Positions 29,156 through 64,000 of a stretch of DNA of 64,000 nt are shown in pieces. The notes under the pieces were generated by a model, which did not search any database, was not told the origin of the DNA, and saw only the letters and a program-made list of their open reading frames with translations. Position 1 is the stretch's first letter, and each line of letters opens with the position of its first letter. The DNA is from Kiritimatiellia bacterium. GTDB lineage: Bacteria > Verrucomicrobiota > Kiritimatiellia > RFP12 > UBA1067. Location: NCBI GenBank assembly GCA_045599445.1, contig JAZRWB010000061.1, positions 12,623 through 76,622 on the forward strand. Direction: 5' to 3'. The position numbers were made by a program, and so were the translations under genes.

Positions 29156-29158
29156 CTT

Positions 29159-42914: not shown

Positions 42915-42984
42915 TGTTACTTTCCTTTGCTTCTTGCCTTCCTTGTGGAAACCTCTCCACGAAAGGCTAAGTTCACGTATTGTA

Positions 42985-43839: not shown

Positions 43840-44051
43840 TACTTCGCCTTCTTGGCGACGAGCTTCTTGACCACCGTCGGACGCTGCACCAAAACGCGCA
43901 CTTCCTCGTCGCCCATGAGTTTCACGTCCTCGGCCTTCATGCCGAACTTCACGAGCCGTGCGCGTTGCGCCTTGTTCTTGCGCACCTTGCCGGCGGGCGT
44001 CTTGCACGGACGAACGTGAGATTCCTTGCGGAGTGTACGACCAGTACCCAT
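43839..44051 (-). CDS. Small basic Lys/Arg-rich protein (ribosomal-protein-like, possibly bL28)
   Basis: 70 aa, highly basic, ESHVRP...RVLV. Preceded by an extended -10 (TGATATAAT) and a ~40-nt hairpin-containing leader, as in ribosomal protein operons. Family is uncertain. Confidence 0.3.
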   Translation of the reverse strand: MGTGRTLRKESHVRPCKTPAGKVRKNKAQRARLVKFGMKAEDVKLMGDEEVRVLVQRPTVVKKLVAKKAK

Positions 44052-44117
44052 TTCTTCTTCTCTCTTTCCGTTGATGAAAACAACGGTGCGTATTATATCA
44101 AAACGCCGTGCGTTGCG

Positions 44118-44969: not shown

Positions 44970-44997
44970 ATGTGGTATTATACCACAAAATCGCGCT

Positions 44998-46158
44998 TTA
45001 ACCAATCGACGAGGAAACTTTGAATACCGCCATCAAAATCGCAATCGCGACGAATCCGACGACGCCGGCGATGGCGACGATAAGAATCGGCTCCAATGCG
45101 TTGGTAAACGAGGCGATGTTGCGATCCATGTCCTTCTGGTAGCGCTTGCCGATGTTCTCCAATGCCGAAGGCATGTCGCCCGCCTGCTCGCCCACCGCGA
45201 GCATGTCGGTCATCATTCGCGGAAATACGCCCGAGGATGCGAGCGGGCCGGAAATCGTCGTGCCGTCGGTAACTCGTTGCCGCGCAGTCTTGAGCGCGTC
45301 TCCAATGACCGCGTTATTGCAAGTCTCTTCGCAAATCTTCAGCGCCTGCAAGACGTTGACGCCGTTCACCAGCAACGTCTTCAGCGTATAGGCGAGCGAC
45401 GAATACGCCCCCGAGGCGACGATGCCCTTGATAAGCGGCGCCTTGAGCTTCCACGCGTCGATCTTCCTTACTCCGTTCGGCGTCCGTTTCCAGCGCCTGA
45501 ACCACCAGACGAACGCCGCGAACGCGATCGCCATGAGCCATCCGTAGTGGATAAGTCCATCGGACATTCCGATCAGAATCTTCGTCGGTAGCGGCAACGT
45601 CGCGCCCATCGAATCGAACACCTTCTGGAACTGGGGAATGATCCACACCAACGCCCCGATGACCGCTACGACGCCGAAACAAAGAACGATTATCGGATAG
45701 GAAAGCGCGCTTTTGATCTTTCCGCGCATATTGTCGTCGCGCTCGTAATGATCGGCGAGCCGCCGCAAAACCTCCACCATCGCGCCCGAGGCCTCGCCTG
45801 CCCGAAGCATGTTCGAGAAAAGCGGCGGAAAGGTCTTCGGATGGCTCGCACACGCGGTGGAGAAGTTTTCGCCGCTCACGATCCGGTCGCAAAGATCCTG
45901 GCAGATCACTCGCTGCGCGGAATCCTCCTCGCCCTGATTCGCGAGCGCCTTGAGCGCCTGCCCGAGCGTCATTCCCGCCTCCAACAGGTCCGCGAGCTCC
46001 GAGACGAAGAGCAGCACCTCCACGCGCTTCATTTCGCTCTTGCGTTTCTTGCCGCCGATTTGCAGTTGCCAAATGGACCCGCTCGTCTTGGACGCGTCCG
46101 TTTTCGGCGAAGCGGTCGTCGTTGCGGCGGGTGCGGTGGCTCGTTTGGCGTATCCCAT
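44998..46158 (-). CDS. gspF: Type II secretion / type IV pilus platform protein (GspF/PilC family)
   Basis: Two GspF-type repeats and three TM segments. Start chosen at MGYAKRAT because the TGGTATAAT -10 ends 7 nt upstream (leaderless). No other T2SS/T4P genes are adjacent. Confidence 0.7.
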   Translation of the reverse strand: MGYAKRATAPAATTTASPKTDASKTSGSIWQLQIGGKKRKSEMKRVEVLLFVSELADLLEAGMTLGQALKALANQGEEDSAQRVICQDLCDRIVSGENFSTACASHPKTFPPLFSNMLRAGEASGAMVEVLRRLADHYERDDNMRGKIKSALSYPIIVLCFGVVAVIGALVWIIPQFQKVFDSMGATLPLPTKILIGMSDGLIHYGWLMAIAFAAFVWWFRRWKRTPNGVRKIDAWKLKAPLIKGIVASGAYSSLAYTLKTLLVNGVNVLQALKICEETCNNAVIGDALKTARQRVTDGTTISGPLASSGVFPRMMTDMLAVGEQAGDMPSALENIGKRYQKDMDRNIASFTNALEPILIVAIAGVVGFVAIAILMAVFKVSSSIG

Positions 46159-46186
46159 GTCGCTTATTATACCAAATTTACGCCGC

Positions 46187-47053
46187 TCAAAACCTCGGCA
46201 AGCGCGAAAGCGACTCGACGCGACCGAAATCGGCGAAGCGCATTCGCCAAATTCTTCCGTGCTCGTCTCGAAGTTCCCGGAGCCGCCGCTCGTCGCGCCG
46301 ATTGCACGCCGCGTCCACCAGTTGCGCGGCATATGCGATCTCCTTCGCCCAGTCGCTTCTCTCCGTCCACTTCTCGCAGGCGATGCGAATTCCACAGGCG
46401 ATTCCGGAAATCTCGTCCAGAATGCAATCGGTCAGCCCCGGATGTCGCGAATAGCCGATTGGCGAGGCGAGGATGTTGAAAAGCTCCGAACCGTCCGGTC
46501 TCATCGCACCGCCGCGCAAATAGAGCGTTCCGAGCTTCAAGAGGACGCCTCCGAGCGGCACGCCGAGAACGCGATCGAGCTCGCGCTCGAGATCCATCTT
46601 CGCCGACTTAGCGCCCGAGGACGCGAACGCGCCGCCCATCAGAATCGCGGGCAACGAAACGCAAAGCGGCTGCCAGTTGCAATCGTCGGCGAAGTCGACG
46701 ACGAGAAACCCCTTTGCGCCGCTCGCACGACCCTTCGTCTCCGCCTCGATCATCCGCTCGCGCATCTCCTCGACCCGTCCCGCGAGACTGCGCGCAGATT
46801 CGGTTTTCACGACCACCCGATCCGCGACTGCCTCGGCGTATGCGTCGCAATTCAGGAACTTCACGTCGATTCCCTGCATCCGGCAATACGCCGCAAGACG
46901 TTCCGCGTCGACGTCGTCCGGAATCGCCTTTTCCGCGAACAGCCAGAACTCGTTGTAACGATACGCGACGAGCGTATCGACGAGTTCCTCGAACGTCGAG
47001 CGCTTCGGCGTCCGCCCGCTTACGTCCAGCAAGTATCCGCGCTTCGAAAACAT
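46187..47053 (-). CDS. GH20-like (beta-hexosaminidase catalytic-domain-like) protein, short or possibly degenerate
   Basis: RGYLLDVSGRTPKRSTFEELVDTLVAYRYNEFWL resembles the GH20 RG(L/M)xLDVxR...L...N.lH.H block. The catalytic DE pair was not identified. 288 aa. Confidence 0.3.
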   Translation of the reverse strand: MFSKRGYLLDVSGRTPKRSTFEELVDTLVAYRYNEFWLFAEKAIPDDVDAERLAAYCRMQGIDVKFLNCDAYAEAVADRVVVKTESARSLAGRVEEMRERMIEAETKGRASGAKGFLVVDFADDCNWQPLCVSLPAILMGGAFASSGAKSAKMDLERELDRVLGVPLGGVLLKLGTLYLRGGAMRPDGSELFNILASPIGYSRHPGLTDCILDEISGIACGIRIACEKWTERSDWAKEIAYAAQLVDAACNRRDERRLRELRDEHGRIWRMRFADFGRVESLSRLPRF

Positions 47054-47075
47054 GGAGGCGCCTTAAGCGCCGTTC

Positions 47076-48812
47076 CTACCGTTCGGCGGCGAGACGCGCC
47101 AGCAGCGACTCGATCGTCATCGACCCGAGATCGCCGTCCGCGCGCGAACGCACGCTGATCGTGCCCGCGGCTTCGTCGCGCGGCCCGACCACCACCTGAT
47201 AGGGAACTTTCTGGAGCGTGGCCTCGCGGATCTTCGCGCCGAGTTTTTCGGACGAAACGTCGATATCGACCCGATAGCCGGCTTCGCGCAGGGCGTTTTG
47301 CGTCTTTTTCGCGTAGTCGAGCGCCTTGTCGGAAATCGGCAGAATCCGCACCTGCTCCGGAGCGAGCCACAGCGGGAACGCGCCCGCGTAATGCTCGATC
47401 AGAATTCCGAAGAAGCGTTCAATCGAACCGAGTAGCGCGCGGTGAACCATATAGGGCTGATGCTCCTTGCCGTCGTCGCCGACGTAAGTCAGGTTGAAGC
47501 GCTCCGGCAGGTTGAAGTCGAACTGCACCGTGCCGAGCTGCCACGGACGGCCAAGCGCGTCCTTGATCTTCATGTCGATCTTGGGGCCGTAGAACGCGCC
47601 GCCGCCTTCGTCGACCTCGTAGCTCATCCCCTCCTGATCCAGCGCATCCCGCAGGGATTGCGTCGCCTGCTCCCAGCGCGCCGGATCGCCGACCGCCTTG
47701 GCGGGCTTGGTGGAGAGATACGCCTGGATGTCGTGGAAGCCGAACTTGCCGAGCATGTTCTTCGCGAAGTTGACCGTGTCGCGAATTTCGCTCACGATCT
47801 GCTCCGGCGTGCAGAAGATGTGGGCGTCGTCCTGGGTAAAGCCGCGCACGCGAAACAGACCGTGCCGAACGCCGTCCTTCTCGTAGCGATACACCGTTCC
47901 CAATTCCGCGAGGCGCATCGGCAAATCGCGATAGGAGCGTTTCTTGAACTGGTAGATCTGGATATGGAACGGGCAGTTCATGGGCTTTACGTAGTACTCT
48001 TCGATGTACGCGTCGTTGCCCGAGCCCTCCTGCACCTTCATGCACGGGAACATTCCCTCCTTGTAGAAGCCAAGATGGCCCGAAGTCTGCCAGAGGTTTG
48101 AACGCCCGACGTGCGGAGTGTAGACGATTTCGTAGCCCGCCTCGTAATGCTTCTTGCGCCAATACTCCTCGATCGCGACGCGAATGCGCGCGCCCTTGGG
48201 GAGCCAGTGGGCGAGGCCGGGGCCGACCGATTCCGTAATCGTGAAAAGCTCCAGTTGCTTGCCCAAGACGCGATGGTCGCGCTTCTTCGCCTCTTCCTCG
48301 CGCGCGATAATCGCGTCCATCTCCGCTTGATCCTTGGCGACGATGCCGTAGACCCGCTGCAGCATCTTGTTCTTCTCGTCGCCGCGATAGTAGGAGCCGG
48401 CGATCTTGGTGAGCTTGACGACGCCGATTTCCTTGGCGTGATCGACGTGGGGTCCGCGGCACATTTCGACGTAGTCGCCGACCGTGTAGGTGGAGATCTT
48501 CGCGCCGTCCGCGATCACGTCCGCGAGCCGCTCGAGCTTGTACTGCTGGCCCGCGAGGAGCGCCTTCGCCTCGTCGGCGGAAACCTCCTTGCGAACGAAC
48601 GGCTCGTCGAGCGCGATGAGGCGCGCGATCTCCTTCTCGATTTTCGGAAAGTCCTCCGTCGAAATGCGATGCGGCAAATCGAAGTCGTAGTAAAAGCCCT
48701 CTTCGGTCGCCGGCCCGATGTCGACCTGCACGTCCTCGAAGAGGTTCATAATCGCCCGCGCCATCATGTGCGCGGCGGAATGCCTTCTCATTTCAACCGT
48801 AATTTCGGCCAT
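47076..48812 (-). CDS. thrS: Threonyl-tRNA synthetase
   Basis: Class II motifs, HRDLGKQLELFT, anticodon-binding C-terminus. RBS GGAG lies inside the 3' end of purL, with a 15-bp gap. Confidence 0.9.
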   Translation of the reverse strand: MAEITVEMRRHSAAHMMARAIMNLFEDVQVDIGPATEEGFYYDFDLPHRISTEDFPKIEKEIARLIALDEPFVRKEVSADEAKALLAGQQYKLERLADVIADGAKISTYTVGDYVEMCRGPHVDHAKEIGVVKLTKIAGSYYRGDEKNKMLQRVYGIVAKDQAEMDAIIAREEEAKKRDHRVLGKQLELFTITESVGPGLAHWLPKGARIRVAIEEYWRKKHYEAGYEIVYTPHVGRSNLWQTSGHLGFYKEGMFPCMKVQEGSGNDAYIEEYYVKPMNCPFHIQIYQFKKRSYRDLPMRLAELGTVYRYEKDGVRHGLFRVRGFTQDDAHIFCTPEQIVSEIRDTVNFAKNMLGKFGFHDIQAYLSTKPAKAVGDPARWEQATQSLRDALDQEGMSYEVDEGGGAFYGPKIDMKIKDALGRPWQLGTVQFDFNLPERFNLTYVGDDGKEHQPYMVHRALLGSIERFFGILIEHYAGAFPLWLAPEQVRILPISDKALDYAKKTQNALREAGYRVDIDVSSEKLGAKIREATLQKVPYQVVVGPRDEAAGTISVRSRADGDLGSMTIESLLARLAAER

Positions 48813-48827
48813 GTCTTAACTCCTTCT

Positions 48828-52670
<3,843 letters not shown>

Positions 52671-52761
52671 TGAGATAAATCTCCTTAAGGTCTTTTGGTG
52701 TATTATACCAAAAAACGCCGCTTAAAGGTAACGTTCCGCTCCTTATAAAAAGACAGGGATA

Positions 52762-53136
52762 TCATACCAATACCTTGGCCAAATCGACAAAGGCGATTTT
52801 CACCGGCTCGAACTTGTAATCCAAGGGATTGACATTCGTCACTGGGTCGTTGACCGCGACTTGATAAACATACGGAACCTTCAATTTCGCCGCAAAGGAC
52901 TTCAAGCTGGCACTCATCGACTCCTTGCCGAACATCTTGCACTCCACCAACATGAACGGCTTGCCATCGCGAACAACGACAAAATCCACTTCGTGCTGTT
53001 GCTTGTCGCGAATATATCCGAGTTCAAAGCGCCCCAAACCGCTATCCGTCCACCAATCGACGCTCTTTAGCAAGTGCGATGCCACGAAATTCTCCGCTCG
53101 CGCCCCGACGTCCGACAGCAAGCTCCAATCCCACAA
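52762..53136 (-). pseudogene. C-terminal remnant of an AAA+/DUF4143 ATPase gene
   Basis: 124-aa ORF with only the DUF4143 / PD-(D/E)xK-like C-terminus (HEVDFVVV...VECK). The upstream ATPase domain is missing. Neighbouring fragments are in other frames. Confidence 0.6.
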
Positions 53137-53299
53137 ATAGATTTAAAGCGCCCTCACTCCCCGCAAATCCTGAACACGGCTCAAATCGCGCAAATCTTCG
53201 GAGAAAATCTTGTCCAAGCGAGAGTTCTGCCAACGAGTGTAAAAACGTCGCGTACCGTTCAAAAACGGCTCGGGATATCCGCCGAACTCCAACTATCTC

Positions 53300-53434
53300 T
53301 CTACCCCAACCCGGTAGAACGCCTTGCCCTTCGGCAAGTCGCCGTCCTTTAGCATCATCTGCGATTCGGTTGCAGGCGTCGTCACTACCGTAGTATCAAG
53401 TTTGCCAATCTCCGCGCCGCGAATAAGCGAATAC
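53300..53434 (-). pseudogene. Fragment duplicating the 3' end of the 54788..56245 gene
   Basis: ~93 bp (53341-53434) is ~91% identical to 54839-54932. Minus-strand translation KYSLIRGAEIGKLDTTVVTTPATESQMMLKDG matches the C-terminus of the 485-aa protein. Confidence 0.65.
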
Positions 53435-53439
53435 TTACT

Positions 53440-54657
53440 TTACCCTAAACAAGACATAGGAACGGCATAATAGCCATCACCGAAACGTAGGACGTGTTCT
53501 CCTGGGTAAAGGACTATTCCCGTATAAGGATTTTTCGCCAAATTACAACCAAACCACTTAAGATGCTTGAAATCGTTCTTGCTAACATTTGCCCCCGCCT
53601 TGACTTCCACCCCAAGTAAGTCACCCTTTTCATTCTCAATAATGAAATCAACTTCGCGTTTATTCTTGTCGCGGTATTGGCTAATCGAATATCCGCCCTC
53701 TACATCCGCAAGCACGGCAAGTTCATGATACACCCAACTTTCGACTAACTTTCCGGAAATATCCGCATCGACAAATGCCATCTCCTCATCCCACCCAAGC
53801 AGGTTCGCCATCAACCCCGTATCCGTTGCAAAATACTTCGGCCTTTTCCCAATCCGATCATAATCCGTTTTCGACCAAGCGGGAACCTTATCAAAAACAT
53901 ATAGAGCACAAAGCGCTGAAAGATACGACTCGGCTGTTGCCTTGCTAATGGACGATTTACCGCAAAGCTCCTCCAAGGTAAAAAATTTGGAAGAATGCGC
54001 CAAAAGCCAATGCGCAATTTCGCGCAATGCATCCAACTTTCGAATCTCTGTCACATCGTGGACATCTTTCTGCAATAAATGCTCAAGATAGTCAGCGAAC
54101 CACGACTTGCGTGGACGAACTGGAAACTCTCGGCATTCTGGATATCCACCCTGAAATGCCAAGTGAATAATCTCCCGTTTCCCAAGCGGTGCTCTTGCCT
54201 CATCAAATTGCCGATTAAAGGCCTTGCTTAAAAATGAAGGTTTTTGGCTCGTAATCTCGCCCAAGCTCAATGTTCGCAACCTGATCGTATGCAAGCGCCC
54301 TGCAAGGGAATCTTTGATTTTCTTTGAGAAATCAAGATTAGAACTCCCGGTTAGCAGATACTGCCCCTTCGCATCATTGATATCAACATGCATTTTGATA
54401 GCATCAAGAAGTTCTGGCACCTTCTGCACTTCGTCAATAATCATTGGTCGCTCATCGGTGCGCTTGGAAAAGGCAATTGGATCCTCCCTTGCCACATTGC
54501 GAACACCCGAATCATCCAATGTATACCGCCTACACGCAGCAAGGTCAAGCATCTTGACAAGCGTCGTCTTTCCGACCTGACGCGCACCTGTCACATGCAC
54601 AACGCGCCGATACCGAAGCGATTCAAGAACTTCATTTTGTTGCCAACGAACAATCAT
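53440..54657 (-). CDS. AAA+ ATPase (AAA_14) with DUF4143 domain, third intact paralog
   Basis: Walker A GARQVGKTT, Walker B MIIDEVQ, C-terminal REVDFII...VEVK. Confidence 0.8.
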   Translation of the reverse strand: MIVRWQQNEVLESLRYRRVVHVTGARQVGKTTLVKMLDLAACRRYTLDDSGVRNVAREDPIAFSKRTDERPMIIDEVQKVPELLDAIKMHVDINDAKGQYLLTGSSNLDFSKKIKDSLAGRLHTIRLRTLSLGEITSQKPSFLSKAFNRQFDEARAPLGKREIIHLAFQGGYPECREFPVRPRKSWFADYLEHLLQKDVHDVTEIRKLDALREIAHWLLAHSSKFFTLEELCGKSSISKATAESYLSALCALYVFDKVPAWSKTDYDRIGKRPKYFATDTGLMANLLGWDEEMAFVDADISGKLVESWVYHELAVLADVEGGYSISQYRDKNKREVDFIIENEKGDLLGVEVKAGANVSKNDFKHLKWFGCNLAKNPYTGIVLYPGEHVLRFGDGYYAVPMSCLG

Positions 54658-54787
54658 AATGAGACTCTATAACCAGCAATCAGTATAACAAATAGTTGGA
54701 CTAAATGTCAATTATGAATTGGACTAAACGCAATCTTTTAATCAGTCCAAATACTCATTACTCCCTCAACTTACAACTACTTCCCGC
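54658..54787. promoter_or_regulatory. Intergenic region with TTGGACTAAA(T/C)G direct repeats and an inverted partial copy
   Basis: agttggactaaatg ... attggactaaacg ... aatcagtccaaatac. Lies upstream of the ATPase gene 53440..54657. Confidence 0.3.
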
Positions 54788-56245
54788 CTACTTCCCTACG
54801 CCTACTTTATAGAACGCATTGTTCGTAGGTGGGTTTTCGTCCTTTAGCGTCATCTGCGATTCGGTTGCAGGCGTCGTCACTACCGTAGTGTCGATTTTGC
54901 CGAGTTCAGCGCCGCGAATAAGCGAATACTTAAGACCGGGTATCGTCTTAATCGTTACCGCTACCTCGCCCGTGCCGACGACGAACGGCTCGCCCGCGTC
55001 CAATTCGCCAATCTTAGGCGTAACCACCTCGGGGTTAAGCGCAAGCGAGAATACCCCGCCTTCGCCAAATCCCATAAACGCCTCGCTCGGAATATCGTAG
55101 CCGTTCAGCTTGACTGCTACCTTCGCCTCTTCTGGCAGATTCCCGATTGTCACCGCCTCAACTCCCTCATTCGGTGTAATAACCCAAACGCCATCCTCGC
55201 CATCGGCTATCGCTCCGCCTTCGCACATTTGGTCCTTTTTGGCGATCTTTACATATGGGTGGCCAGTGCCAACCGCGCCTTCAACCACCATCACCTTATC
55301 ACCCAGCGTCACCGTGCCGTCCGCACCATTCCAGCCGCCGCCGATACCTGGCGCACTGTAGCCTCCAGTTGCCGTCACCGTACCGAGCGTATTGAGAACG
55401 ATGGTTCCTGCATCCTGCCGACTTGCACCGCCAATGCCTGCAGCAAAATCATCACCTTGTGCCAAGATATCGCCCTCGCCCAAAATGGTGAGGGTGTTGC
55501 CCTGGTTAACAACAATGCCATGTGTAGCGTTCAGAAGAGACCCCTCCGCAAGATACAGCGTGACCCCGCCATCAATGACGATGGACGCGGCAAGATCGAG
55601 CCGCCCTTCGACAAACCAGTTGCCAGAAGTGAGCTTTAGAGTTTCCGCCGTCACATCATTGTAGCTGTCCACAGGGGGCAGACCGCACAAGTCGCAGAGA
55701 CCGTTTCCGTCCGCATCGACATGGGGACCTGGCCGAGTGTCAAAAACGCTCTCGGTTCGTGTGGCTTCAATCGTCTGGAATTTCGCCTCGTAGTGTCCCT
55801 TGCCTTTTTCCCTGCAGTCCGCGCCGGGCGTGTCTTCGACAAACGCGATCTCCGTCGCCTGTTCGATCAGGATGTCCTCGCCGCAGTCGCCGCAGTGCCG
55901 CGTCGCCGTGCAAGCCGTATGATCGGCATTCCAATGGAAAGTCAAGTTCATGGATTCCCAAACGTGGTAATGCACGGAAATATACTTTTCGTCGGTGTAC
56001 GCGGTAAAGGTCACTGCCGTCTCTTCGCTTTCGCCGCCCTTGATTATAGGTTTACCGAACACATTCCAAAAGCCATCGGCCAGCGAACCGTCATCGCCAC
56101 GATCGCCGGCTTCGCCGATAGCGCCCCAATTACTAGCGTTTCTGCCGGCGTCGCCGCCGTCGCCGCCGCACCGCCGAAGGCCACTCCGACCGCTGCACCG
56201 CCGCCGCGCTCGCCTCGCTCGCCCGCACGGTAACCGCCAATCCAA
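54788..56245 (-). CDS. Secreted repeat protein (Gly-rich beta-strand repeats, Cys-pair N-region), 5' end probably truncated
   Basis: GIGGASRQDAGTIVLNTLGTVTATGGYSAPGIGGGWNGADGTVTL repeats. Cys pairs (CGDCG, CDLCG). No signal peptide. The first ~35 codons are Arg-rich and GC-rich and coincide with the prophage boundary at ~56130. Confidence 0.5.
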   Translation of the reverse strand: MDWRLPCGRARRARRRCSGRSGLRRCGGDGGDAGRNASNWGAIGEAGDRGDDGSLADGFWNVFGKPIIKGGESEETAVTFTAYTDEKYISVHYHVWESMNLTFHWNADHTACTATRHCGDCGEDILIEQATEIAFVEDTPGADCREKGKGHYEAKFQTIEATRTESVFDTRPGPHVDADGNGLCDLCGLPPVDSYNDVTAETLKLTSGNWFVEGRLDLAASIVIDGGVTLYLAEGSLLNATHGIVVNQGNTLTILGEGDILAQGDDFAAGIGGASRQDAGTIVLNTLGTVTATGGYSAPGIGGGWNGADGTVTLGDKVMVVEGAVGTGHPYVKIAKKDQMCEGGAIADGEDGVWVITPNEGVEAVTIGNLPEEAKVAVKLNGYDIPSEAFMGFGEGGVFSLALNPEVVTPKIGELDAGEPFVVGTGEVAVTIKTIPGLKYSLIRGAELGKIDTTVVTTPATESQMTLKDENPPTNNAFYKVGVGK

Positions 56246-56298
56246 GCGCCAAGGACAAGAAGCTCGCCGACGAACAAGTCGCCGCCGTCTCGGAGCTC

Positions 56299-57918
56299 GT
56301 GAACTCTATCGACAATCTCGACGAAGTTATCGAACACCTCGATCTCGCCTTCTTCCGTGGCTATTCCGTCGCCCAGCCGATCTGGACGAACGACACCGTC
56401 CGCCACATCGAAGTCTTCGATTCCTGGAACTTCCTCTTCGACGAGCGCGGCGCGCTCCTCTGGAACCCCAACTGCTCGATGGACGTGAAGGACTGCGAGA
56501 CAATTGGGCCCTCCGCCCGTCTTCTCTACCTGAAGCGTCGCCGCGCGATCGACTGGCCCGCGCTGATAATCTATCTTCGGAAGTACATCGGCGAGCGCGA
56601 CTGGGGCCGCTTCCTCGAACGCTACGGTATCCCGCCGGTCGACGTCGTCATGGCGGCGAACGCGACCAAGGAGGATCGCTCGGAATACGAAAAGGGCGCC
56701 GACGCCGCCAACAACGGCCAAAACGTCGTCTGGCCGGCTAACTCCCAAATCTCCCGCTCCGAAACCTCGCGCGGCCAGGATCCGTTCTCCGCGTTCATCG
56801 ACCATCAGGAGCGCGAGATCGTCCTTATGGCGACGGGCGGAACCCTAACCTCGCTCGCCCAAGCCGACACCGGCGCCCTCGCCGGCGGCGCCCAGATGAA
56901 AGTCTGGGAGCAGATCGTCGCTCGCGACGCGGTCTTGACCAACGCCGTCTTCGCGCGTTCGCTAATTAACCGCTTCCTCGCTCTCAACTTCCCCGGGCGC
57001 GAGATCGCCGCCAAGTTCGAACTCGGCCCCGAGAAGAATCCCTCGCCGGCCGAAGTCGCCGAGCTCGCCGGCAAGATCAAGTCCGCCGGCTACCTCGTCG
57101 ATCAACACGCCCTCGAAGAGGCGACCGGCTTCAAGCTCGTCAAGGACGAAACGCCTTCGAACGGCGTCCCGTTCCTGAACAAGCGTCCCTCTCCCGACGC
57201 CACCGCTCGCGGTGGCGATAAGCTCCTCGCCGCCTTCGCCTCCGACATGTCCCCCTTGGGCGACGCGATTAAAGCGCTTTTAAACGACCCTTCACCCGCC
57301 GCTGCCACGGCTTTAATCGACCGCCTCCCGTCCCTCCTCCCGGACGATCCCGCCCTCGCCTCCATCCTCGCCGAGGCAATGGCCGAGGAGTTCGGCGTTA
57401 CTCTCGCAAATAGCGGTACTTCCGAAGGTGCCAAGAAAGGATGGGAGACGCGCCTCCGCAACGGCTGGACCCCCAAGCAGCTCGAGGACAACAAGAAAGC
57501 CGTCCGCGCGCTCGCCGAAAAAGCAATATCCGACAGGCAATCGAACGAGACAATCGACCTCGGAACCGTCAACGGCGAAGCCGTGTCGGACATCAAACGC
57601 AAAACCGGCATTGACGTAACCGGTTTCAAACAAACGATTTCGTCGCGCGATCTGCGCCACGCCGACAACCGGCACGGATCGAACGGCGAAACAAACAAAG
57701 GGCAAGTCCCGCTGACGATTGAAGATTACGAGCGAATCCCGGAGCTCTTTTCAAATTACGACCGAATTGAAAAAGGATCTCCGGAGAAGAATACTAACCT
57801 CCCCTCGATACGATTCATAAAAAAATACGACGACGGAACTCTATACGGAGTTGATGTCATCGTTGAGAAGGACAAGACGATCCGCTACAAAACCGGATGG
57901 AAAGATGCTCCGCAATGA
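56299..57918 (+). CDS. Mu gp29-like (DUF935) portal protein with low-GC C-terminal extension domain; N-terminus probably truncated
   Basis: FLERYGIPP...LMATGGTLTSLAQADTGALAGG matches the DUF935 core. GTG start at 56299 is the first start after the stop at 56134. The last ~100 aa, carrying the RHADNRHGSNG...LTIEDYERIPELFSNYDRI block, are ~50% GC against ~65% for the rest. Confidence 0.65.
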   Translation: MNSIDNLDEVIEHLDLAFFRGYSVAQPIWTNDTVRHIEVFDSWNFLFDERGALLWNPNCSMDVKDCETIGPSARLLYLKRRRAIDWPALIIYLRKYIGERDWGRFLERYGIPPVDVVMAANATKEDRSEYEKGADAANNGQNVVWPANSQISRSETSRGQDPFSAFIDHQEREIVLMATGGTLTSLAQADTGALAGGAQMKVWEQIVARDAVLTNAVFARSLINRFLALNFPGREIAAKFELGPEKNPSPAEVAELAGKIKSAGYLVDQHALEEATGFKLVKDETPSNGVPFLNKRPSPDATARGGDKLLAAFASDMSPLGDAIKALLNDPSPAAATALIDRLPSLLPDDPALASILAEAMAEEFGVTLANSGTSEGAKKGWETRLRNGWTPKQLEDNKKAVRALAEKAISDRQSNETIDLGTVNGEAVSDIKRKTGIDVTGFKQTISSRDLRHADNRHGSNGETNKGQVPLTIEDYERIPELFSNYDRIEKGSPEKNTNLPSIRFIKKYDDGTLYGVDVIVEKDKTIRYKTGWKDAPQ

Positions 57919-58040
57919 AAAAACAATCGCGAGATATCCGCGGAGTGTACGTGCCCTCCAGCGATTACGTCCAAGACGTAATATCTCGCGACGCCCCGAA
58001 TTATACCACAACGAACTTCTGAAAGGCAATAGCGAATTTT

Positions 58041-58691
58041 ATGAAGCGATATTCAATAACGATCAAGATGGACAGCGCGACGGAGTTCAACATGCTCCCA
58101 GCGTGCGATCCTCTTATCGGCGAGGAATTCGTCGCCCATCTCGGTGCGAACGCCGAATCTGATGTGAGCATATCTTGCGACATCTCTCAAGGTTCCGTGA
58201 TCGGGAAGCGCAAAAACGGCCTTCGCCCCTTCCTCCCCGCGCTTTACAACGATGCGCGGAAGTTCTTCCTCGCCCCACTTAACGAAAATCGGGAATCGCT
58301 GCTTGAAGACAATCCCGACCTCGGCGAAGATGTATTCGATGGTCTCGCCATTCTCGCCGTCATTGACAACAATCACTTCGGGGATCACGGAAAGGTCATC
58401 AGTAAAGCGGATGTGGAACGCTACGCGAAGCCGATTCTTGCCGCGCTTCGTTTTGCGAAATCTATCGCAAAAGTCGAAAGCTCCTTTTATGAACTCAAAA
58501 ATCTTCAGTATGACGTCCATTTTAACCCCCTTAATCGAGAGGTGATTATATCAAAAAGACCCGCTCGCGGTTTACTTGGCTTCATCCAGCGTCATTCCAA
58601 TCGCGGCTTTGGAATTAACGACCTTCCAAAAACTCGTCATTTACTGACATTCAAAATTCCCACCCGTCCCACCCGTCCCACTCGTCCCTAA
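58041..58691 (+). CDS. Low-GC accessory (moron) gene, candidate immunity protein
   Basis: 216 aa with no recognisable domain. ~52% GC. Lies directly downstream of the portal's C-terminal extension. Ends with PTRPTRPTRP encoded by a 3x 9-bp tandem repeat. Confidence 0.4.
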   Translation: MKRYSITIKMDSATEFNMLPACDPLIGEEFVAHLGANAESDVSISCDISQGSVIGKRKNGLRPFLPALYNDARKFFLAPLNENRESLLEDNPDLGEDVFDGLAILAVIDNNHFGDHGKVISKADVERYAKPILAALRFAKSIAKVESSFYELKNLQYDVHFNPLNREVIISKRPARGLLGFIQRHSNRGFGINDLPKTRHLLTFKIPTRPTRPTRP

Positions 58692-58895
58692 CATGCCCAT
58701 TTCCCCCCAATTCTACCTCCCCGAAGGGTCTTGCGGCGGCCGCGGCGTCGGCCGCACCCCCGTGACCCCGTTTAATCCCGACGCTATGCCGTTTAAAAAC
58801 TCGCCGCGCGTTTTGGACGGCTCGTTGCCCGTCCCGACCCTCCAAGCGCTCCTACGGCCGTTTTCGAGGGGGTTTTAGGAAAGGAACCGACATCC

Positions 58896-59918
58896 ATGAA
58901 ACTATTCGCCCTCGCTAACGAGAAAAACGACACCAAAGACCGGGTGATCCGCGTCCCTTACGGAACTTGGGACTACGGAACCAAGAAGCTGGAAGACGGA
59001 CGCTCGATCTTCTTCACCCAGACGCTCGACCGGCGCGGCGCCCAAGCGATCGCCGGCGAAGTCTCCGCCAAGATCGCGAAAAACGAAAAAGGCGTGCCGG
59101 TCTACTGGGGCCACCCGGACGTCCCGGAGCTCGCCCACAAATATCCGGACAAGCGAGCCAAGGGTTGGATCGTCAAGGCCGAAGCGACCGACGACGCGCT
59201 GCTGCTTACCGTCGACTGGCTCGACGAAAAGCCGACCGAGGGCTTCGGTTGGTTCTCGCCCTTCTGGAAGGGCTCGATCACCCCGACCGGCGAAGGCCGC
59301 GCGTCGATGGCGGTCGACTCGATCCAGTCGGTCGCGCTCATCAACACCCCCAACATCGAGGAATTTCGTCTTGCAAACGAATTGCAGGACACCGACAACC
59401 CGGCCGACATCGGCCACAAAGAAAAGGAACAAGACATGGACAGGAACAAACTGATCCAAATGCTTGGGCTCAAGCCGGAAGCGACCGACGAGGAAATCTT
59501 CGCCGCGATCGGCAAGCTCAAGACCGACGCCGCCGATGCGAGCACGAAGCTCGAAGCGGCCAACGCCGAAACCGAAACGGCGAAAAAGGAGTGCAAGGAG
59601 GCCAAGGACGCCCTCGCCAACGAGCGCAACGAGCGTTGCAACCTTCTTCTCGACAGCGCCATCGCCGACGGTCGCATCTCCGTCGCGGGTCGCGCCGCGT
59701 GGGCCAAGCGCCTCACCGAGGACTTCGCCGCCGGCTCGGTCGCGCTCGCGAACGAGAAGCCGCTGAAGCGCGAAAGCGCCGTCAAGGAGCTCGCGAACAC
59801 GAGCGGCAAGTCCGTGGATCTCGTCGCGCTCGCGAACGAGCGCATGCAGAAGAACCCCGGCATGTCCTACACCGTCGCCTTCGCCGCGGTGATGAAGGAA
59901 CACCCCGAAGTCAAGTAA
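58896..59918 (+). CDS. Mu I-like prohead protease with C-terminal coiled-coil scaffold
   Basis: N-terminus VIRVPYGTWDYG... matches Mu-like_Pro. The C-terminal half is Ala/Glu/Lys-rich coiled coil (gpZ-like scaffold). RBS aaaggaa upstream. Confidence 0.7.
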   Translation: MKLFALANEKNDTKDRVIRVPYGTWDYGTKKLEDGRSIFFTQTLDRRGAQAIAGEVSAKIAKNEKGVPVYWGHPDVPELAHKYPDKRAKGWIVKAEATDDALLLTVDWLDEKPTEGFGWFSPFWKGSITPTGEGRASMAVDSIQSVALINTPNIEEFRLANELQDTDNPADIGHKEKEQDMDRNKLIQMLGLKPEATDEEIFAAIGKLKTDAADASTKLEAANAETETAKKECKEAKDALANERNERCNLLLDSAIADGRISVAGRAAWAKRLTEDFAAGSVALANEKPLKRESAVKELANTSGKSVDLVALANERMQKNPGMSYTVAFAAVMKEHPEVK

Positions 59919-59943
59919 CCCCCGAAAGAAAGGCAAAAAACCA

Positions 59944-60315
59944 ATGAAAGGTATTCATCGTAACGGTCTCATGACGTTCGTCGCCGGCGCGGCCATCGCT
60001 GCGGGCGAGTTCGTCAAGTTCTCCAGCGGCAAGGTCGTCAAGTGCTCCGCCGCGACGGACATCGCCATCGGCGTCGCGCTCGACAGCGCCTCCGCCGACG
60101 GCGACAACATCCCGGTGCAGCTCCTGACGGGCTCCGACACCGTGATCGTCAAGGCGGGCGGCGCGGTCGCCCAGGGCGGAACGCTCTCGTGCCTCGGTAC
60201 GACCGTCTCCACCGCCGGCGCTCTTCAGTACGGCATCGCCCTCGAAGCGGCGACCGCCTCCGGCGACCTCATCGAGGCCATCGTCGGTATTCCGGCCGTT
60301 ACCAAGATCAGCTAA
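59944..60315 (+). CDS. DUF2190-family head decoration protein
   Basis: 123 aa, Gly/Ala-rich beta pattern GEFVKFSSGKVVK...GVALDSA..GD.IPVQLLTG. Confidence 0.55.
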   Translation: MKGIHRNGLMTFVAGAAIAAGEFVKFSSGKVVKCSAATDIAIGVALDSASADGDNIPVQLLTGSDTVIVKAGGAVAQGGTLSCLGTTVSTAGALQYGIALEAATASGDLIEAIVGIPAVTKIS

Positions 60316-60348
60316 GTTCACGCACAAAACCAAGAAAGGCAAATCAAC

Positions 60349-61320
60349 ATGGACAATATCATCCTCCCCGCTACCGCCAACGGTAGCATGAAGCCCGGCG
60401 AGATCTATCTCGCGAACGAGGGCGCAGTCAACAACCAGTTCCTCTCGGAGGCTCTGACGCAGTACTCCGTCGGCTGGAAGTCCCCCAGCGGTGTGCTCGA
60501 GGCGCTCCTCAAGCTCATCTTCGGCGAGCCGATCGTCGTCGGCAAGTCGTTCCAGTTCTCGAAGGCCGACGACAAGGCGTCGTTCTACGCCTGCGAAAGC
60601 GACGAGGACGTCCGCGCGATCGGAGCCGACTTCAAGCGCGTCAACTGGGGCAGCACGAAGGTCGACAGCCACACGCTCTCGAAGGGTCTCACGACTCGCA
60701 TCGATCGCGACAAGCTGAACGACGACCCGGAAGCCGAGCAGAAGGCCATCTCCGCGCTCCGCACGTTCCTGATGCGCGCCGACATCCTTCGCGGTCTCAA
60801 CGCGCTCTCGTCGAACGCGACGAACGCCGCGAAGACCTGGGGCACGGGCGACAACAAGGCCGACGCCGACGCGGACGTGATCGGAATGCTCATCACCGCC
60901 GCCAAGGCCGCCGGACTCAAGCCCAATCAGGTGCTCTACGGCATCACCGCGTACCAGAAGCGCTTCCTCACGCTTCGCGACGCGAACAACACCGCGGTCG
61001 CCGGTTCCGCGACGCTCGCCAACGAGCAGCTCGCCGGACTCTTCGGCGTCAAGACCGTCAGCCAGGTGGAGCAGATCTACCAGAGCGGCGCGTCCAAGGC
61101 GGCGATGATCGACAACCTGGTGCTCGGCTACAACGTGCAGCAGTCCGGGCTCGACGAGGATCCGTCGAACATCAAGCTCTTCATCACGAAGATGGGCGGC
61201 GGCAGCGAGTACGCCGTCTTCCGCGAGGAGCACGGTGCGTTCGTCGACCTCACGGTCGCCCACCAGAGCCGCGCGGTCGTGACCTCGACCACCGGCATCG
61301 GCAAGCTTACGATCTCGTAA
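60349..61320 (+). CDS. Mu gpT-like major head subunit
   Basis: 323 aa. Pattern and position after protease/scaffold are consistent with Mu-like_gpT. Confidence 0.7.
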   Translation: MDNIILPATANGSMKPGEIYLANEGAVNNQFLSEALTQYSVGWKSPSGVLEALLKLIFGEPIVVGKSFQFSKADDKASFYACESDEDVRAIGADFKRVNWGSTKVDSHTLSKGLTTRIDRDKLNDDPEAEQKAISALRTFLMRADILRGLNALSSNATNAAKTWGTGDNKADADADVIGMLITAAKAAGLKPNQVLYGITAYQKRFLTLRDANNTAVAGSATLANEQLAGLFGVKTVSQVEQIYQSGASKAAMIDNLVLGYNVQQSGLDEDPSNIKLFITKMGGGSEYAVFREEHGAFVDLTVAHQSRAVVTSTTGIGKLTIS

Positions 61321-61412
61321 CGCTTAAGGTGCGCTGGAGCGGGCTTTACCATTGTTCCCCGCTCCAGCCACCTCCTAACTACAACTACAACTCCAACTAC
61401 AACTAAATCACC

Positions 61413-61847
61413 ATGTGGCGCAAACTTACCGAAGAAGATCTGATTGCCGCGCTCTCGCGCCGTGAAGTCGAAGCGTTTCGTCGCGACTTCGAGGTCGACA
61501 CGATTCCCCAGCTGCTCTCGCAGACCTCGGCCATGGTTCGCGGCTACATTCGCAACAACGGCAACGTCCGCATGTCGCCGGAAGACGGCACGATTCCCGA
61601 AAGCTGCGTCGGTCCCGCGATCGATTACGTCGTCATCTCCATCTTGAAGCGCATCGCGCTCGAACCGACCGAGGCCCGCTCCAAGGCCCGCGACGCCGCC
61701 ATCACCTTCTTCCGCGACATCGCCTCCGGCCACAACAACCCCGAATCCTATCTCGCGGACGAATCCGCCCCGACCGGCGGCTCCTGCGCCGTCGTCATCC
61801 AGAACTCCCGCACCCGCGTCTCCTCCCGCAAACTCGAAGGCCTGTAA
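61413..61847 (+). CDS. Mu gp36-like (DUF1320) head-tail connector protein
   Basis: 144 aa. MWRKLTEEDLIAALSRREVEAF... matches DUF1320 in layout and position. Confidence 0.5.
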   Translation: MWRKLTEEDLIAALSRREVEAFRRDFEVDTIPQLLSQTSAMVRGYIRNNGNVRMSPEDGTIPESCVGPAIDYVVISILKRIALEPTEARSKARDAAITFFRDIASGHNNPESYLADESAPTGGSCAVVIQNSRTRVSSRKLEGL

Positions 61848-62392
61848 TGCGCATCACCCGCGTCATAGTTCCTCGCGACCTCATCCCCGCCGACCGTCTC
61901 TGCGCGGAGAAGGCCGCGTTGCGCGTGACCGACCTCGTTATCAAGCATCTGCGCAAGAAAAACTTCGCCACCAAGCCGAATCCCTTTGGGATGCCCAAGT
62001 CCAACTACTATGCCGACGCGGCCGATACCGCCAAATACGAAGTCCACACCAAATCATTCGTCGTCTCCGTCGGCACCGACTCTACCGAGCGTAACGCGCC
62101 CGGTCGCGGACTCGCCCTCCACTACGAGGGCGGCACCATCTACCCTCGCAAAAAATCACTCGCCATGCCGATCGATCCGATCGTTGCTGGCATCTGGCCG
62201 AGCGAATACACCCAAGCGGGTCACAAACTTTTCAAAACTCCTGGCGGCGCGCTTGGCGACAGCGAGACGGGTAAGATTCTCTACATCCTTCTGCCGCGCG
62301 CAACCATCCCCGCCGATCCGTCGGTTCTGCCGACCGACGAGGAAATCGCCAATGCCGCAACTCTTGGACTCGGGGAGGCGACCGCAGTATGA
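61847..62392 (+). CDS. Phage virion morphogenesis protein (Mu gp37/K-like)
   Basis: 181 aa, ATGA-coupled to the upstream gene. Assignment is by position only. Confidence 0.35.
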   Translation: MRITRVIVPRDLIPADRLCAEKAALRVTDLVIKHLRKKNFATKPNPFGMPKSNYYADAADTAKYEVHTKSFVVSVGTDSTERNAPGRGLALHYEGGTIYPRKKSLAMPIDPIVAGIWPSEYTQAGHKLFKTPGGALGDSETGKILYILLPRATIPADPSVLPTDEEIANAATLGLGEATAV

Positions 62393-63549
62393 CCGCCGCC
62401 GACTTAATCCTCCAAAAAGCCCTAGTTGGATCGAAGATCAACTCGACCGAGTGGTCACGCATTCAAGCCGGACTTCGCGACCGTGCCTTTTTCTCTGCGA
62501 CTGTCGAAGACGTTCGCCTTCTCCATACGATGCGCGAAGCCGTCGCTCAAGTGGCAAGCCAAAAACTCGATCCTTCCGAAGCCAGACTGACGATCCGCAA
62601 AGCTTTGGATACCATAGGATATAGCGCCCCGGAAGGCAAAGAAGGATCCCTCCGGGATTTACGCACTAAAGCGAGATTGGACTTGATTATTAAAACCAAT
62701 CGCGACCAAGCGCATGGATTTCTGCAATACAAACAATTTACGACAAAATCCGCGCTTGAGGAGTTTCCCGCCTCGCGTCTCGTTCGCGTGAAATCGCGCC
62801 GTGTTCCACGCGATTGGCACGCGCGCTGGAACTCTGCCGCAGCGGCCGTCGCTTACGATGGAGTACTTCGCGCTCGCGACATGGTCGCGCTCAAGACCTC
62901 GCCTATCTGGACGGCCATCTCCCGCTTTGGCCACCCTTACCCTCCCTTCGACTTCAATTCCGGAATGGGAGTCGAAAACGTCTCGATTTCGGAAGCAATA
63001 TCCATCGGGCTCGTAAAAAAAGACGATCCTCCGCAAAAAGTCCCGGATATCGGCTTTAACGACGCTCTTGGCGCGGAAATACCCAATCTTCGCAACGACT
63101 CGCTCTGCGCGGATATTCTCCATCAGAAATTTGGCGACCAGATCTCAATAGAGAATAGCAAGGTTAATTGGCAAGGTAACTTGATTCAAGATGTCCTCGA
63201 AGGACGCATAAAACGCGCTCGTTTGGGGAAAGGATTCAACGGACAGAACCTAAGTTTGTCACATCAATTTCTTGTTGAACACGGTTCCAAACATTTAAAC
63301 CCCGAAGAACCGGGCGAGCATTTGACCAAACAGGAATTCGAGCTCTTGCCTTCTCTATGGCGAAATCCCGACCGCATACTGCCGACACGAGATCCCAACC
63401 GCTTCGAGCTCGACTTGGACACTCTGGACGGAGGATATATCTTGGCCATAATCGATCGAAGAGATGGACTGAAAAGCATTCAAAAAAAATTATCCGGGCG
63501 GGAGCATCACCTGAACTTCTCGCTCGGAGCCTCAAAGGGCTTGAGATGA
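62389..63549 (+). CDS. MuF-like minor head protein with low-GC C-terminal extension homologous to the portal's extension
   Basis: MuF-like core PRDWHARWNS...FGHPYPPFDFNSGMG. The last ~120 aa are ~48% GC and align with the portal C-terminus: HQFLVEHGSKHLNPEEPGEHLTKQEFELLPSLWRNPDRI against RHADNRHGSNGETNKGQVPLTIEDYERIPELFSNYDRI. Confidence 0.6.
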   Translation: MTAADLILQKALVGSKINSTEWSRIQAGLRDRAFFSATVEDVRLLHTMREAVAQVASQKLDPSEARLTIRKALDTIGYSAPEGKEGSLRDLRTKARLDLIIKTNRDQAHGFLQYKQFTTKSALEEFPASRLVRVKSRRVPRDWHARWNSAAAAVAYDGVLRARDMVALKTSPIWTAISRFGHPYPPFDFNSGMGVENVSISEAISIGLVKKDDPPQKVPDIGFNDALGAEIPNLRNDSLCADILHQKFGDQISIENSKVNWQGNLIQDVLEGRIKRARLGKGFNGQNLSLSHQFLVEHGSKHLNPEEPGEHLTKQEFELLPSLWRNPDRILPTRDPNRFELDLDTLDGGYILAIIDRRDGLKSIQKKLSGREHHLNFSLGASKGLR

Positions 63550-63593
63550 CCTGAACCGCTCGGATGCAAGAAGTATACAATAATTCGCTAACC

Positions 63594-64000
63594 ATGACAA
63601 TACACGAATTTCAAAACCAGTTAAAAGCGCGTTTAGCGAGCGTTCAAGCGCTCGTACAAGGCGGCTGCGTGATTCTCGCCGAAGACACCCGCGAAGTCTA
63701 CGATCGCGCCAAGCAAGCGTTGAGCGAAGGCAAAGTCGCCGTTGTCGTTACCACCCCCAAATTCACCCGCAACGGTTGCAGCCAGGGCTGCATCCCCGTC
63801 GAAGCCAATCTCGTCATTCGCTGCGTGGAGATCCCGCCGATTGCCCGCGAAGACTCTCTCACCATCCGCGCTCTTGATGCGGCCGGCATCATCGCCCACG
63901 AACTCGAAGACGAGTACATTCAATTCGAAGACATCGAACAGACCCTATCTAACGACGGCACGGTCACCGCGTCAACGACATTCTCAACCACCATTTATCT
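63594..64000 (+). CDS. Hypothetical phage protein (5' part, runs off the right edge)
   Basis: Open frame from ATG 63594 to the window end. MTIHEFQNQLKARLASVQALVQGGCVILAEDTREV... Confidence 0.4.
   Translation, partial: MTIHEFQNQLKARLASVQALVQGGCVILAEDTREVYDRAKQALSEGKVAVVVTTPKFTRNGCSQGCIPVEANLVIRCVEIPPIAREDSLTIRALDAAGIIAHELEDEYIQFEDIEQTLSNDGTVTASTTFSTTIY

Follow-up and report, generated by a model that had tools for sequence, protein, structure and literature searches.

The window analysed here is a stretch of 64,000 nt from a Kiritimatiellia bacterium (contig JAZRWB010000061.1, positions 12,623 to 76,622 of the forward strand, assembly GCA_045599445.1). It carries a Mu-like prophage with three open reading frames of interest, all confirmed where the first-pass annotation of this DNA had placed them: a portal gene (56299..57918, 539 aa), an ORF of 216 aa (58041..58691, hereafter ORF216) and the gene of a MuF-like protein of 386 aa (62389..63549). 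The features discussed below are the following:

56203..57918, + strand: Mu-type portal gene, truncated at its 5' end, with a Portal_Mu match; the annotated ORF is 56299..57918, 539 aa, with a GTG start
57391..57579, + strand: linker of aa 365-427, joining the portal core to the nuclease domain; in the portal of locus L017, which has no tail, the core homology stops at aa 364
57415..57468, + strand: motif GTSEGAKKGWETRLRNGW inside the portal linker, invariant among portal-PBECR3 fusions
57580..57903, + strand: PBECR3 domain (PF18812) at the portal C-terminus, predicted to be a metal-independent RNase with the BECR fold
57927..57991, + strand: structured element just after the portal stop codon (MFE -32.2 kcal/mol, z=-3.3)
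58041..58691, + strand: ORF216, apparently a conserved orphan accessory gene at the portal-protease junction, with five homologues
62389..63549, + strand: minor head protein of 386 aa, with a MuF-like N-terminal and a PBECR3-like C-terminal domain
62449..63015, + strand: MuF-like domain (aa 21-209), from the hhalign alignment to Mu gp30
63223..63492, + strand: divergent PBECR3-like domain (aa 279-368), with profile-level homology to PBECR3

The genes that flank both PBECR-type carriers encode a protease, a cement protein, the major capsid protein and gp36. Six genes separate the portal from the MuF-like gene, whereas the usual place of the latter is directly after the portal; a MuF-like gene located several genes downstream, past the capsid genes, is also found in loci L001, L016 and L017. 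Comparison of the neighbours of the MuF-like gene with Mu gp31 and gp35-38 by hhalign gave no match. A terminase gene was not found anywhere within the 64-kb window, and no tRNAs are present near the prophage end.

The portal protein and the portal-protease junction

The portal core is recognised by the Pfam model Portal_Mu (PF06074; E=2.7e-31), with aa 5-277 aligned to profile positions 53-335 of 336; the match is therefore short of full-length membership in the Mu-type portal family, given that only these positions are covered. Homology to P0132 and P0156 detected with tblastn begins at nt 56203, which corresponds to residue 74-82 of these proteins, and no start codon was found upstream of the GTG at 56299. 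Compared with its relatives, the portal is short of about 75-115 N-terminal residues, a truncation that had been missed in the first-pass annotation. P0132 is a full-length portal-PBECR3 fusion of 696 aa, 42% identical to the portal from end to end; a search of viral contigs for related loci with the single portal sequence as query retrieved nothing. Because the portal lacks its N-terminus and the terminase is absent from the window, the prophage copy found here is probably decaying, and probably delivers nothing any longer.

The C-terminal region of the portal (aa 428-535) matches PF18812 (PBECR3) with 68.5 bits, against a cut-off of 30 bits (E=5.9e-19), and the tail alone reaches 72.7 bits. 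The first-pass annotation had suspected a polyvalent protein with a BECR-type RNase and had proposed a comparison with the profiles of the PBECR group; this idea was right, and the domain, for which that annotation had no name, is PBECR3, one of the profiles of that group. The predicted catalytic residues H454 (57658), H459 (57673) and K531-T532 (57889..57894) are invariant across seven fusions, and the configuration expected of an active site, i.e., a His in the N-terminal helix together with a C-terminal Thr or Ser (PMC5512222), is present in the portal tail as well as in the 386-aa family. The metal-independent endoRNase activity of PBECR3 is itself a prediction, here as in the literature. 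An exhaustive phmmer search with the tail recovered 1671 relatives, among them giant polyvalent proteins of 1-6 kaa and full-length portal fusions (a word-indexed search with the same tail returned one relative only). The motif GTSEGAKKGWETRLRNGW of the linker is invariant in six portal-PBECR3 fusions and absent in the 144 other PBECR3 proteins examined.

Both tails had been described as low in GC and as horizontally swapped cassettes, and for the portal these claims stand. The GC content falls from 0.64 in the core to 0.49 in the tail, and GC3 from 0.83 to 0.58, with an intermediate GC3 of 0.69 in the linker. Furthermore, the nearest portal core, at 52% identity (L017, 463 aa), stops at the core boundary and has no tail, the portal of L001 carries a different, PBECR1-like tail at that boundary, and in L004 and L016 the tail gives way to a separate ORF; in L016 this is the 158-aa module also found in L004, followed by a DNA methyltransferase and not by a homologue of ORF216. 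In the phage contig L007 (IMG/VR) the order is terminase, portal with PBECR3, and protease, with no gene between the last two. In this phage group the junction is occupied by a nuclease tail, by solo ORFs, by a methyltransferase gene or by ORF216, and as judged from these comparisons the portal tail is a cassette and the portal-protease junction a cargo hotspot.

The spacer between the portal and ORF216 (57919..58040) is a mosaic that encloses the structured element 57927..57991. The fold of this element was equalled by none of 200 shuffles (0/200), and it has no match in Rfam. The left half of the spacer is shared with L015, where it lies downstream of a solo PBECR3, and the right half with L004, where it lies upstream of the ORF216 homologue.

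ORF216 and the question of immunity

Five homologues of ORF216 were detected, with identities of 36-75%. Its GC content is 0.51 and its GC3 0.56; it has no match in Pfam, PHROG, PADLOC, NCBIfam or PDB, and its AF2 model has a pLDDT of 48.6, which is too low for a fold comparison. A scan for promoters and terminators around the gene gave nothing convincing. The single sequence used as query in viral contigs revealed no related loci, nor did the alignment used as query in genome and metagenome contigs. The distant homologues lie in contexts that resemble early regions.

The first-pass annotation had considered ORF216 as an immunity gene. According to this reading, patterned on the MuF polymorphic toxins, the tail of the portal is an antibacterial toxin, and ORF216 the cognate immunity protein that protects the lysogen or the virion-producing cell. 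In its favour stand adjacency and composition: ORF216 begins 122 bp past the portal stop codon, and its GC3 is close to that of the tail (0.58) in a neighbourhood of 0.83-0.93. In L004, too, the junction holds a homologue with 75% identity that comes after a nuclease-like ORF, such that a nuclease-like module precedes ORF216 in both informative portal-context loci, as expected of an immunity gene; the comparison comprises these two portal-context loci only. It is also known that immunity ORFs are often found downstream of MuF toxin genes (PMC5576092). However, the ORF upstream in L004 is not detectably similar to the PBECR3 tail in spite of the 75% identity between the genes that follow, whereas a cognate immunity protein normally changes along with its toxin. 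The 158-aa module of L004 precedes the methyltransferase in L016, and the portal-PBECR3 fusion of L007 has no intervening gene. The homologues of L005 and L006 (36-39% identity) have as neighbour either the gene of a divergent HTH repressor or a small ORF resembling a lipoprotein, on contigs that carry no PBECR domain, although these contigs are short (1.6-2.4 kb). The mosaic spacer likewise marks a junction between the module of the portal tail and that of ORF216, and with 216 aa the product is longer than the ORFs found behind MuF toxin genes, which have <150 aa. An immunity ORF should lie immediately downstream of the toxin domain, travel with it and co-vary with it; in this small sample ORF216 does not behave in this way. 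The immunity reading is thus unsupported, and the toxin-immunity pair seems unlikely. From its conservation and its contexts, ORF216 appears to be a real orphan gene that is not tied to PBECR3, and most likely it belongs to the cargo hotspot as an independent accessory gene rather than being a cognate immunity gene.

A more speculative proposal, which we regard as rather improbable, is that the ORF216 family represents a new inhibitor of broad specificity, or 'safety catch', of phage PBECR-type nucleases, which would move independently at the portal-protease junction and protect the producing cell during synthesis of the portal that bears the nuclease; in this proposal, the conserved motif GTSEGAKKGWETR would be a head-protease site that releases the nuclease into the capsid.

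The 386-aa protein and the relationship between the two tails

More than 800 full-length homologues of the 386-aa protein were found, in Kiritimatiellae MAGs where the source names the organism. The family phrog_220 ('minor head protein and DNA pilot') was matched by 21 of 25 members, with a best E of 1.4e-12. Using hhalign, the profile of the family (A1) was aligned with Mu gp30 with a probability of 91.6% (E=8.2e-7), pairing aa 21-209 with residues 33-202 of gp30, a region that contains its PF04233 domain (residues 59-188). PF04233 itself had no match at E<=1 in the protein and 25 relatives; hence, the 'MuF-like' label given earlier holds at the level of profile homology to Mu gp30, and not through a direct match to the Pfam model. 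At the position where Mu gp30 has PPNGWNCRCRV, the family shows an invariant PPFDFNSGMGV.

Pfam at E<=10 detected nothing in the complete 386-aa protein or in its tail, and the Pfam PBECR3 model matched 3 of 25 relatives, with a best E of 0.028. Foldseek with the 386-aa model yielded no significant match in PDB and a best E of 1.9e-3 in BFVD, where a few proteins annotated 'head morphogenesis' or 'minor capsid' were listed with non-significant scores. Sequence searches of PDB with the profiles A1 and A3 returned nothing meaningful, and neither PADLOC nor NCBIfam had a match for the portal, ORF216 or the 386-aa protein.

The conserved residues of the tail are H298 (63280), K301-H302 (63289..63294), E307 (63307) and K362-S363 (63472..63477); within the family H302 and S363 are invariant, and H298, K301 and K366 are conserved at >=90%. 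In contrast to the portal tail, and contrary to the earlier claim, this tail is not a recent low-GC acquisition: GC3 is low throughout the gene (0.55, 0.60 and 0.52 by thirds), and the domain is kept in the >800 homologues at the position that MuF_C has in Mu gp30. It is replaced only in distant relatives from Akkermansia phages, whose 'head morphogenesis' proteins have the MuF-like part only in common with the 386-aa protein.

The constancy of this domain bears on another explanation, in which the tails are catalytically dead and play a structural or an RNA/DNA-binding role, aiding head assembly or genome anchoring, as proposed for the inactive MuF-C of Mu gp30 (PMC5512222). The presence of the tail in every one of >800 homologues at that position agrees with such a role, and portal C-termini touch packaged DNA. 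Nevertheless, neither family varies at the His and Ser/Thr positions by which active PBECRs are defined, and the portal tail is dispensable, being absent in L017 and replaced in other relatives; a role confined to structure or to RNA/DNA binding is accordingly improbable.

The two tails are similar in a central block, LTIEDYERIPELFSNYDRI in the portal and LTKQEFELLPSLWRNPDRI in the 386-aa protein, with 9 of 19 residues identical (pairwise BLASTP, E=7e-4). Three shared patterns had been described, of which the central one is exact; the first and the third fit only with shifts of one residue, the portal having H454-x4-H459 and YGVDVIVEKD where the 386-aa protein has H298-x3-H302 and YILAIIDRRD. 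P0234, which also has 386 aa, was considered as a direct link between the tails and was discarded, as it is unrelated to the MuF-like protein. At the profile level, the tails of the 386-aa family aligned with the PBECR3 alignment with a probability of 92.4% (hhalign, E=5.2e-7, 90 columns), pairing H302 with H459 and K362-S363 with K531-T532, and with the single portal tail with 86% (E=4.6e-6). A custom PBECR3 HMM matched 107 of 120 members of the family (best 31.5 bits), and the 386-aa copy of the window scored 6 bits only; reciprocally, the HMM of the family tails matched genuine PBECR3 domains, and the predicted secondary structures agree. Although the BLASTP match spans 19 residues only and Pfam misses the 386-aa tail, the profile-profile E over 90 columns, the matches of the independent HMM to most of the family, the reciprocal matches and the agreement in secondary structure make it very improbable that the similarity is an effect of chance or composition between two low-GC, charged C-termini, a reading that is effectively refuted. 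As far as sequence comparison can tell, the two tails are homologous over the whole domain, and the 386-aa protein carries a divergent relative of PBECR3.

Comparison with known systems and possible role

PBECR domains fused to MuF and portal proteins were described by Iyer, Burroughs, Anand, de Souza and Aravind (2017, J Bacteriol, PMC5512222), who considered that these fusions are probably packaged and injected; this architecture has thus been published since 2017, and the prophage described here adds a member. As in those fusions, the portal bears a domain of this family, which here scores above the Pfam cut-off; the two carriers, the head-gene context and the His plus Ser/Thr configuration of the active site also agree. 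The prophage differs in that both carriers occur in one phage, the MuF-like copy belongs to a divergent subfamily missed by the Pfam model and is encoded apart from the portal, and the portal copy is 5'-truncated. Each carrier combines at least two conflict or carrier domains and is encoded among virion or packaging genes, as defined for polyvalent proteins.

Mu gp30 (F; PF04233 and MuF_C, PF18819) also has a MuF domain followed by a C-terminal domain of the PBECR class, the latter described as inactive (PMC5512222). Its alignment with the 386-aa tail is weak (hhalign, 9-26% probability), although in the same register, with LKPEDLQRLPSLMAKPQAV against LTKQEFELLPSLWRNPDRI; the equivalence of this tail to MuF_C is suggested by its position and by the published analysis (PMC5512222). 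Unlike Mu gp30, the 386-aa family retains the catalytic His and Ser, has NSGMG in place of the NCRC motif, and matches neither PF04233 nor PF18819. The MuF polymorphic toxins (Jamet et al. 2017, BMC Biol, PMC5576092) likewise begin with a head-protein domain and end with an enzymatic one, in temperate phages or prophages; in contrast, no co-varying small immunity ORF was found here, the C-terminal domain is constant in the 386-aa family and other genes lie between the portal and the MuF-like gene. The tails have no detectable sequence similarity to colicin-like BECR RNase toxins (colicin D, CdiA-CT tRNases, BrnT/RelE), and the locus shows neither a secretion or CDI setting nor a demonstrated partner for immunity.

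The reading that we favour, with a probability of about 0.7, is that two head-internal proteins of a Mu-like prophage, the portal and the MuF-like minor head protein, both carry a PBECR3-type domain at the C-terminus, in the simplest form of the polyvalent architecture, with ORF216 most likely independent and the copy in the window probably decaying. In an intact phage of this kind, the domains would be packaged inside the capsid, given that the portal C-terminus and proteins of the MuF/gp7 type face the DNA; they would enter the host together with the DNA, and may cleave RNA of the host or of a rival element early in infection.

The result is mainly one of annotation, as it provides a name and a predicted activity for the C-termini of two head proteins of a prophage, and it reveals no new kind of system. 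More than 800 unannotated minor head proteins can now be described as MuF proteins whose divergent PBECR3-like domain escapes the current Pfam models, and the portal-protease junction is documented as a cargo hotspot in this phage group. If PBECR3 were shown to be an injected RNase, phages of this group in which the portal and the MuF-like protein both bear nuclease-type domains would offer convenient test systems.

The head-gene region and the portal nuclease domain

The three open reading frames described in the first-pass annotation are all present, i.e., a portal gene at 56299..57918 (539 aa), a 216-aa ORF at 58041..58691 (hereafter ORF216) and a MuF-like gene at 62389..63549 (386 aa), and they belong to a series of Mu-like head genes that also includes the following:

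58896..59918, Mu-like protease
59944..60315, cement or decoration protein
60349..61320, major capsid protein
61413..61847, gp36-like protein

The gene next after the MuF-like gene (63594..64000, running past the end of the window) is kept at the same position in the related loci L016 (153 aa) and L017 (156 aa), with 37-38% identity; no BLASTP similarity was found to the 162-aa ORF at the equivalent position of a third locus, L001, and none was detectable to Mu gp31 or gp35-38.

In the portal, Pfam recognizes Portal_Mu at residues 5-277 and PF18812 at residues 428-535 (E=5.9e-19, 68.5 bits with a cut-off of 30); the latter is the 'phage-Barnase-EndoU-ColicinE5/D-RelE like nuclease 3' (PBECR3) in its full Pfam name, and the tail that the first-pass annotation had left unnamed can now be designated. 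An exhaustive phmmer search retrieved 1671 relatives of this tail at E<=1e-3, which are of three kinds: giant proteins with many domains (1-6 kaa), solo proteins 130-250 aa long, and portals of ~690-740 aa. The 696-aa protein P0132, which carries Portal_Mu and PBECR3 according to Pfam, is 42% identical to this portal from end to end, and seven portal fusions are all invariant at H454, H459, E464 and K531-T532.

Residues 373-390 of the portal (57415..57468) include the motif GTSEGAKKGWETR[RL]RNGW, which is invariant in six portal-PBECR3 fusions and was found in none of 144 other PBECR3 proteins. It also occurs twice in a 369-aa protein (4938..6047) of L008, an unrelated IMG/VR contig. This motif may represent the border between two modules or a point of cleavage by a protease.

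Regarding composition, the low GC attributed to both tails was borne out for the portal, where GC3 breaks sharply at the tail and remains low in ORF216; the 386-aa gene is low throughout and not in its tail alone.

GC3 along the head-gene region
Portal core: 0.83
Portal linker: 0.69
PBECR3 portal tail: 0.58
ORF216: 0.56
Protease: 0.84
Major capsid protein: 0.93
386-aa gene, three thirds: 0.55 / 0.60 / 0.52

The second domain of the MuF-like protein

Pfam gave no match at all on the 386-aa protein, and pairwise BLASTP between the portal tail and this protein aligned a 19-residue central block only (E=7e-4). Full-length homologues of the protein (95-96% coverage) number more than 800 and come from Kiritimatiellae MAGs wherever the source gives the organism, and intermediate members of this family, such as P0061, bear a far closer resemblance to PBECR3. 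An HMM made from 140 representative PBECR3 domains matched 107 of 120 family members (best score, 31.5 bits), and in a profile-profile comparison the family tails aligned with PBECR3 over 90 columns with a probability of 92.4% (E=5.2e-7). Reciprocally, the HMM of the family tails matched genuine PBECR3 domains in the loci L015 and L007. The residues H302, S363 and others nearby are invariant in the family, and this region aligns onto H459 and K531-T532 of the portal; in the AF2 model (mean pLDDT 74.7, ~80-90 in the tail) a helix at 292-303 is followed by four strands. Given the reciprocal and profile-profile matches, the aligned invariant residues and the model, the two tails are homologous, as had been suggested from the sequence alone, and the second one (aa 279-368) is a divergent PBECR3-like domain with its predicted catalytic configuration intact.

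The label 'MuF-like' is likewise sustained, not by Pfam, in which PF04233 gave no match on this protein, but by other comparisons. With hhalign, residues 21-209 of the family align onto residues 33-202 of Mu gp30 (91.6%, E=8.2e-7), a span that includes the PF04233 domain of gp30 (59-188); 21 of 25 family members match phrog_220, 'minor head protein and DNA pilot'; and Akkermansia phage proteins annotated as 'head morphogenesis' have the N-terminal part alone in common with it, their C-termini being different. The C-terminus of Mu gp30 is a MuF_C domain, classed as an inactive PBECR (Iyer et al. 2017, PMC5512222), to which the second tail aligns weakly and in the same register. Therefore, this protein shows the canonical two-domain MuF layout, and the idea that an extension was recently joined to a MuF core was rejected. 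Judging from the sequence, its second domain is apparently an active, predicted nuclease version of what is classed as inactive in gp30.

At aa 183-194 (62935..62970) the invariant family sequence PPFDFNSGMGV replaces PPNGWNCRCRV of Mu gp30; thus, the Cys-Arg-Cys of MuF has been lost in this family.

ORF216 and the portal-protease junction

Sequence comparison indicates that ORF216 is a real gene; its five homologues (36-75% identity) have many invariant residues in common with it. No naming match was obtained in Pfam, PHROG, PADLOC, NCBIfam or PDB, and the structure model was unusable. The 3' end of ORF216 encodes a short PTRPTRPTRP repeat (58662..58691), which is absent from its homologues. 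The contents of the junction between the portal and protease genes in related loci are as follows.

Portal-protease junction in related loci
L017: 463-aa portal, 52% identical to this core, stops 10 residues past the core; then protease
L001: 686-aa portal with a different tail (weak PBECR1 match, E=7.5e-4)
L004: portal stops at the core; separate 158-aa ORF (weak PBECR2 match, E=0.024), then ORF216 homologue
L016: 156-aa ORF, 55% identical to that of L004; then DNA methyltransferase
L007: portal-PBECR3 fusion; protease directly next, no gene in between

These differing contents indicate that the junction is a hotspot for cargo, and the N6/N4 DNA methyltransferase of L016 (4189..5094, after the 156-aa ORF) that it receives accessory genes.

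It had been proposed that ORF216 is the cognate immunity protein of the portal tail, which it adjoins and whose low GC3 it shares; moreover, ORF216 or its homologue comes after a nuclease-like module in both portal-context examples. Nevertheless, the L004 homologue is 75% identical to ORF216 while the ORF preceding it has no similarity to this PBECR3 tail, the module of L004 is paired with a methyltransferase in L016, and the L007 portal bears PBECR3 without ORF216. The neighbour of the 36-39% identical homologues is, in L005, a divergent HTH repressor and, in L006, a small lipoprotein-like ORF; both contigs are short, and neither has a detectable PBECR domain. In addition, the 122-bp spacer between the portal and ORF216 is a mosaic, its left half matching the sequence that follows a solo PBECR3 in L015 and its right half the sequence upstream of the ORF216 homologue in L004. 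In this small sample, where the next-downstream gene is seen in L007, L004, L015 and the window only, a cognate immunity role is improbable.

Directly 3' of the portal stop codon, 57927..57991 folds, as RNA or DNA, into a stable branched structure with a 10-bp outer stem (CGCGAGATAT/ATATCTCGCG) around two hairpins (MFE -32.2 kcal/mol, z=-3.3). It has no match in Rfam, and its inner part is kept after the solo PBECR3 gene in L015.

State of the prophage and relation to known systems

Full-length portal homology begins at nt 56203, corresponding to residue 74-82 of its relatives; the portal frame has no start codon upstream of the GTG at 56299, and no terminase homologue was found anywhere in 1..64000. 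From these sequence features, this copy of the prophage is 5'-truncated at the portal, appears to be cut off on its left side, and is probably defective. To the left there is a lower-GC island and then purL; ORFs on this side include the following:

54788..56245, minus strand, 485-aa ORF whose sole match is a weak one to a beta-helix repeat; at its 5' end it overlaps what is left of the portal 5' region
53440..54657, minus strand, 405-aa AAA_14 + DUF4143 ATPase matching the PADLOC candidate defence family PDC-S01 (E=5e-124)
52762..53136, minus strand, 124-aa ORF matching the C-terminal part of PDC-S01; it looks like a fragment of a gene of this family
48828..52670, minus strand, purL

Both PDC-S01-matching ORFs (52762..54657) sit in a stretch of 44-50% GC. 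The host part of the window also includes two very long minus-strand ORFs, 16551..26327 (3258 aa) and 8811..12734 (1307 aa).

The PBECR families were defined by Iyer et al. 2017 (PMC5512222), who described fusions to MuF and portal domains as their simplest architectures and inferred that these domains are packaged and injected; PBECR3 was placed in the colicin-like BECR group by a 2026 preprint. Small immunity ORFs have been reported downstream of MuF toxins (Jamet et al. 2017, PMC5576092), whereas such a pattern is not demonstrable at this locus. Overall, the first-pass annotation is confirmed in part as to its observations and supported in part as to their interpretation. Both carriers fit the PBECR-portal and PBECR-MuF fusions already described, and the kind of system that they represent is already known.
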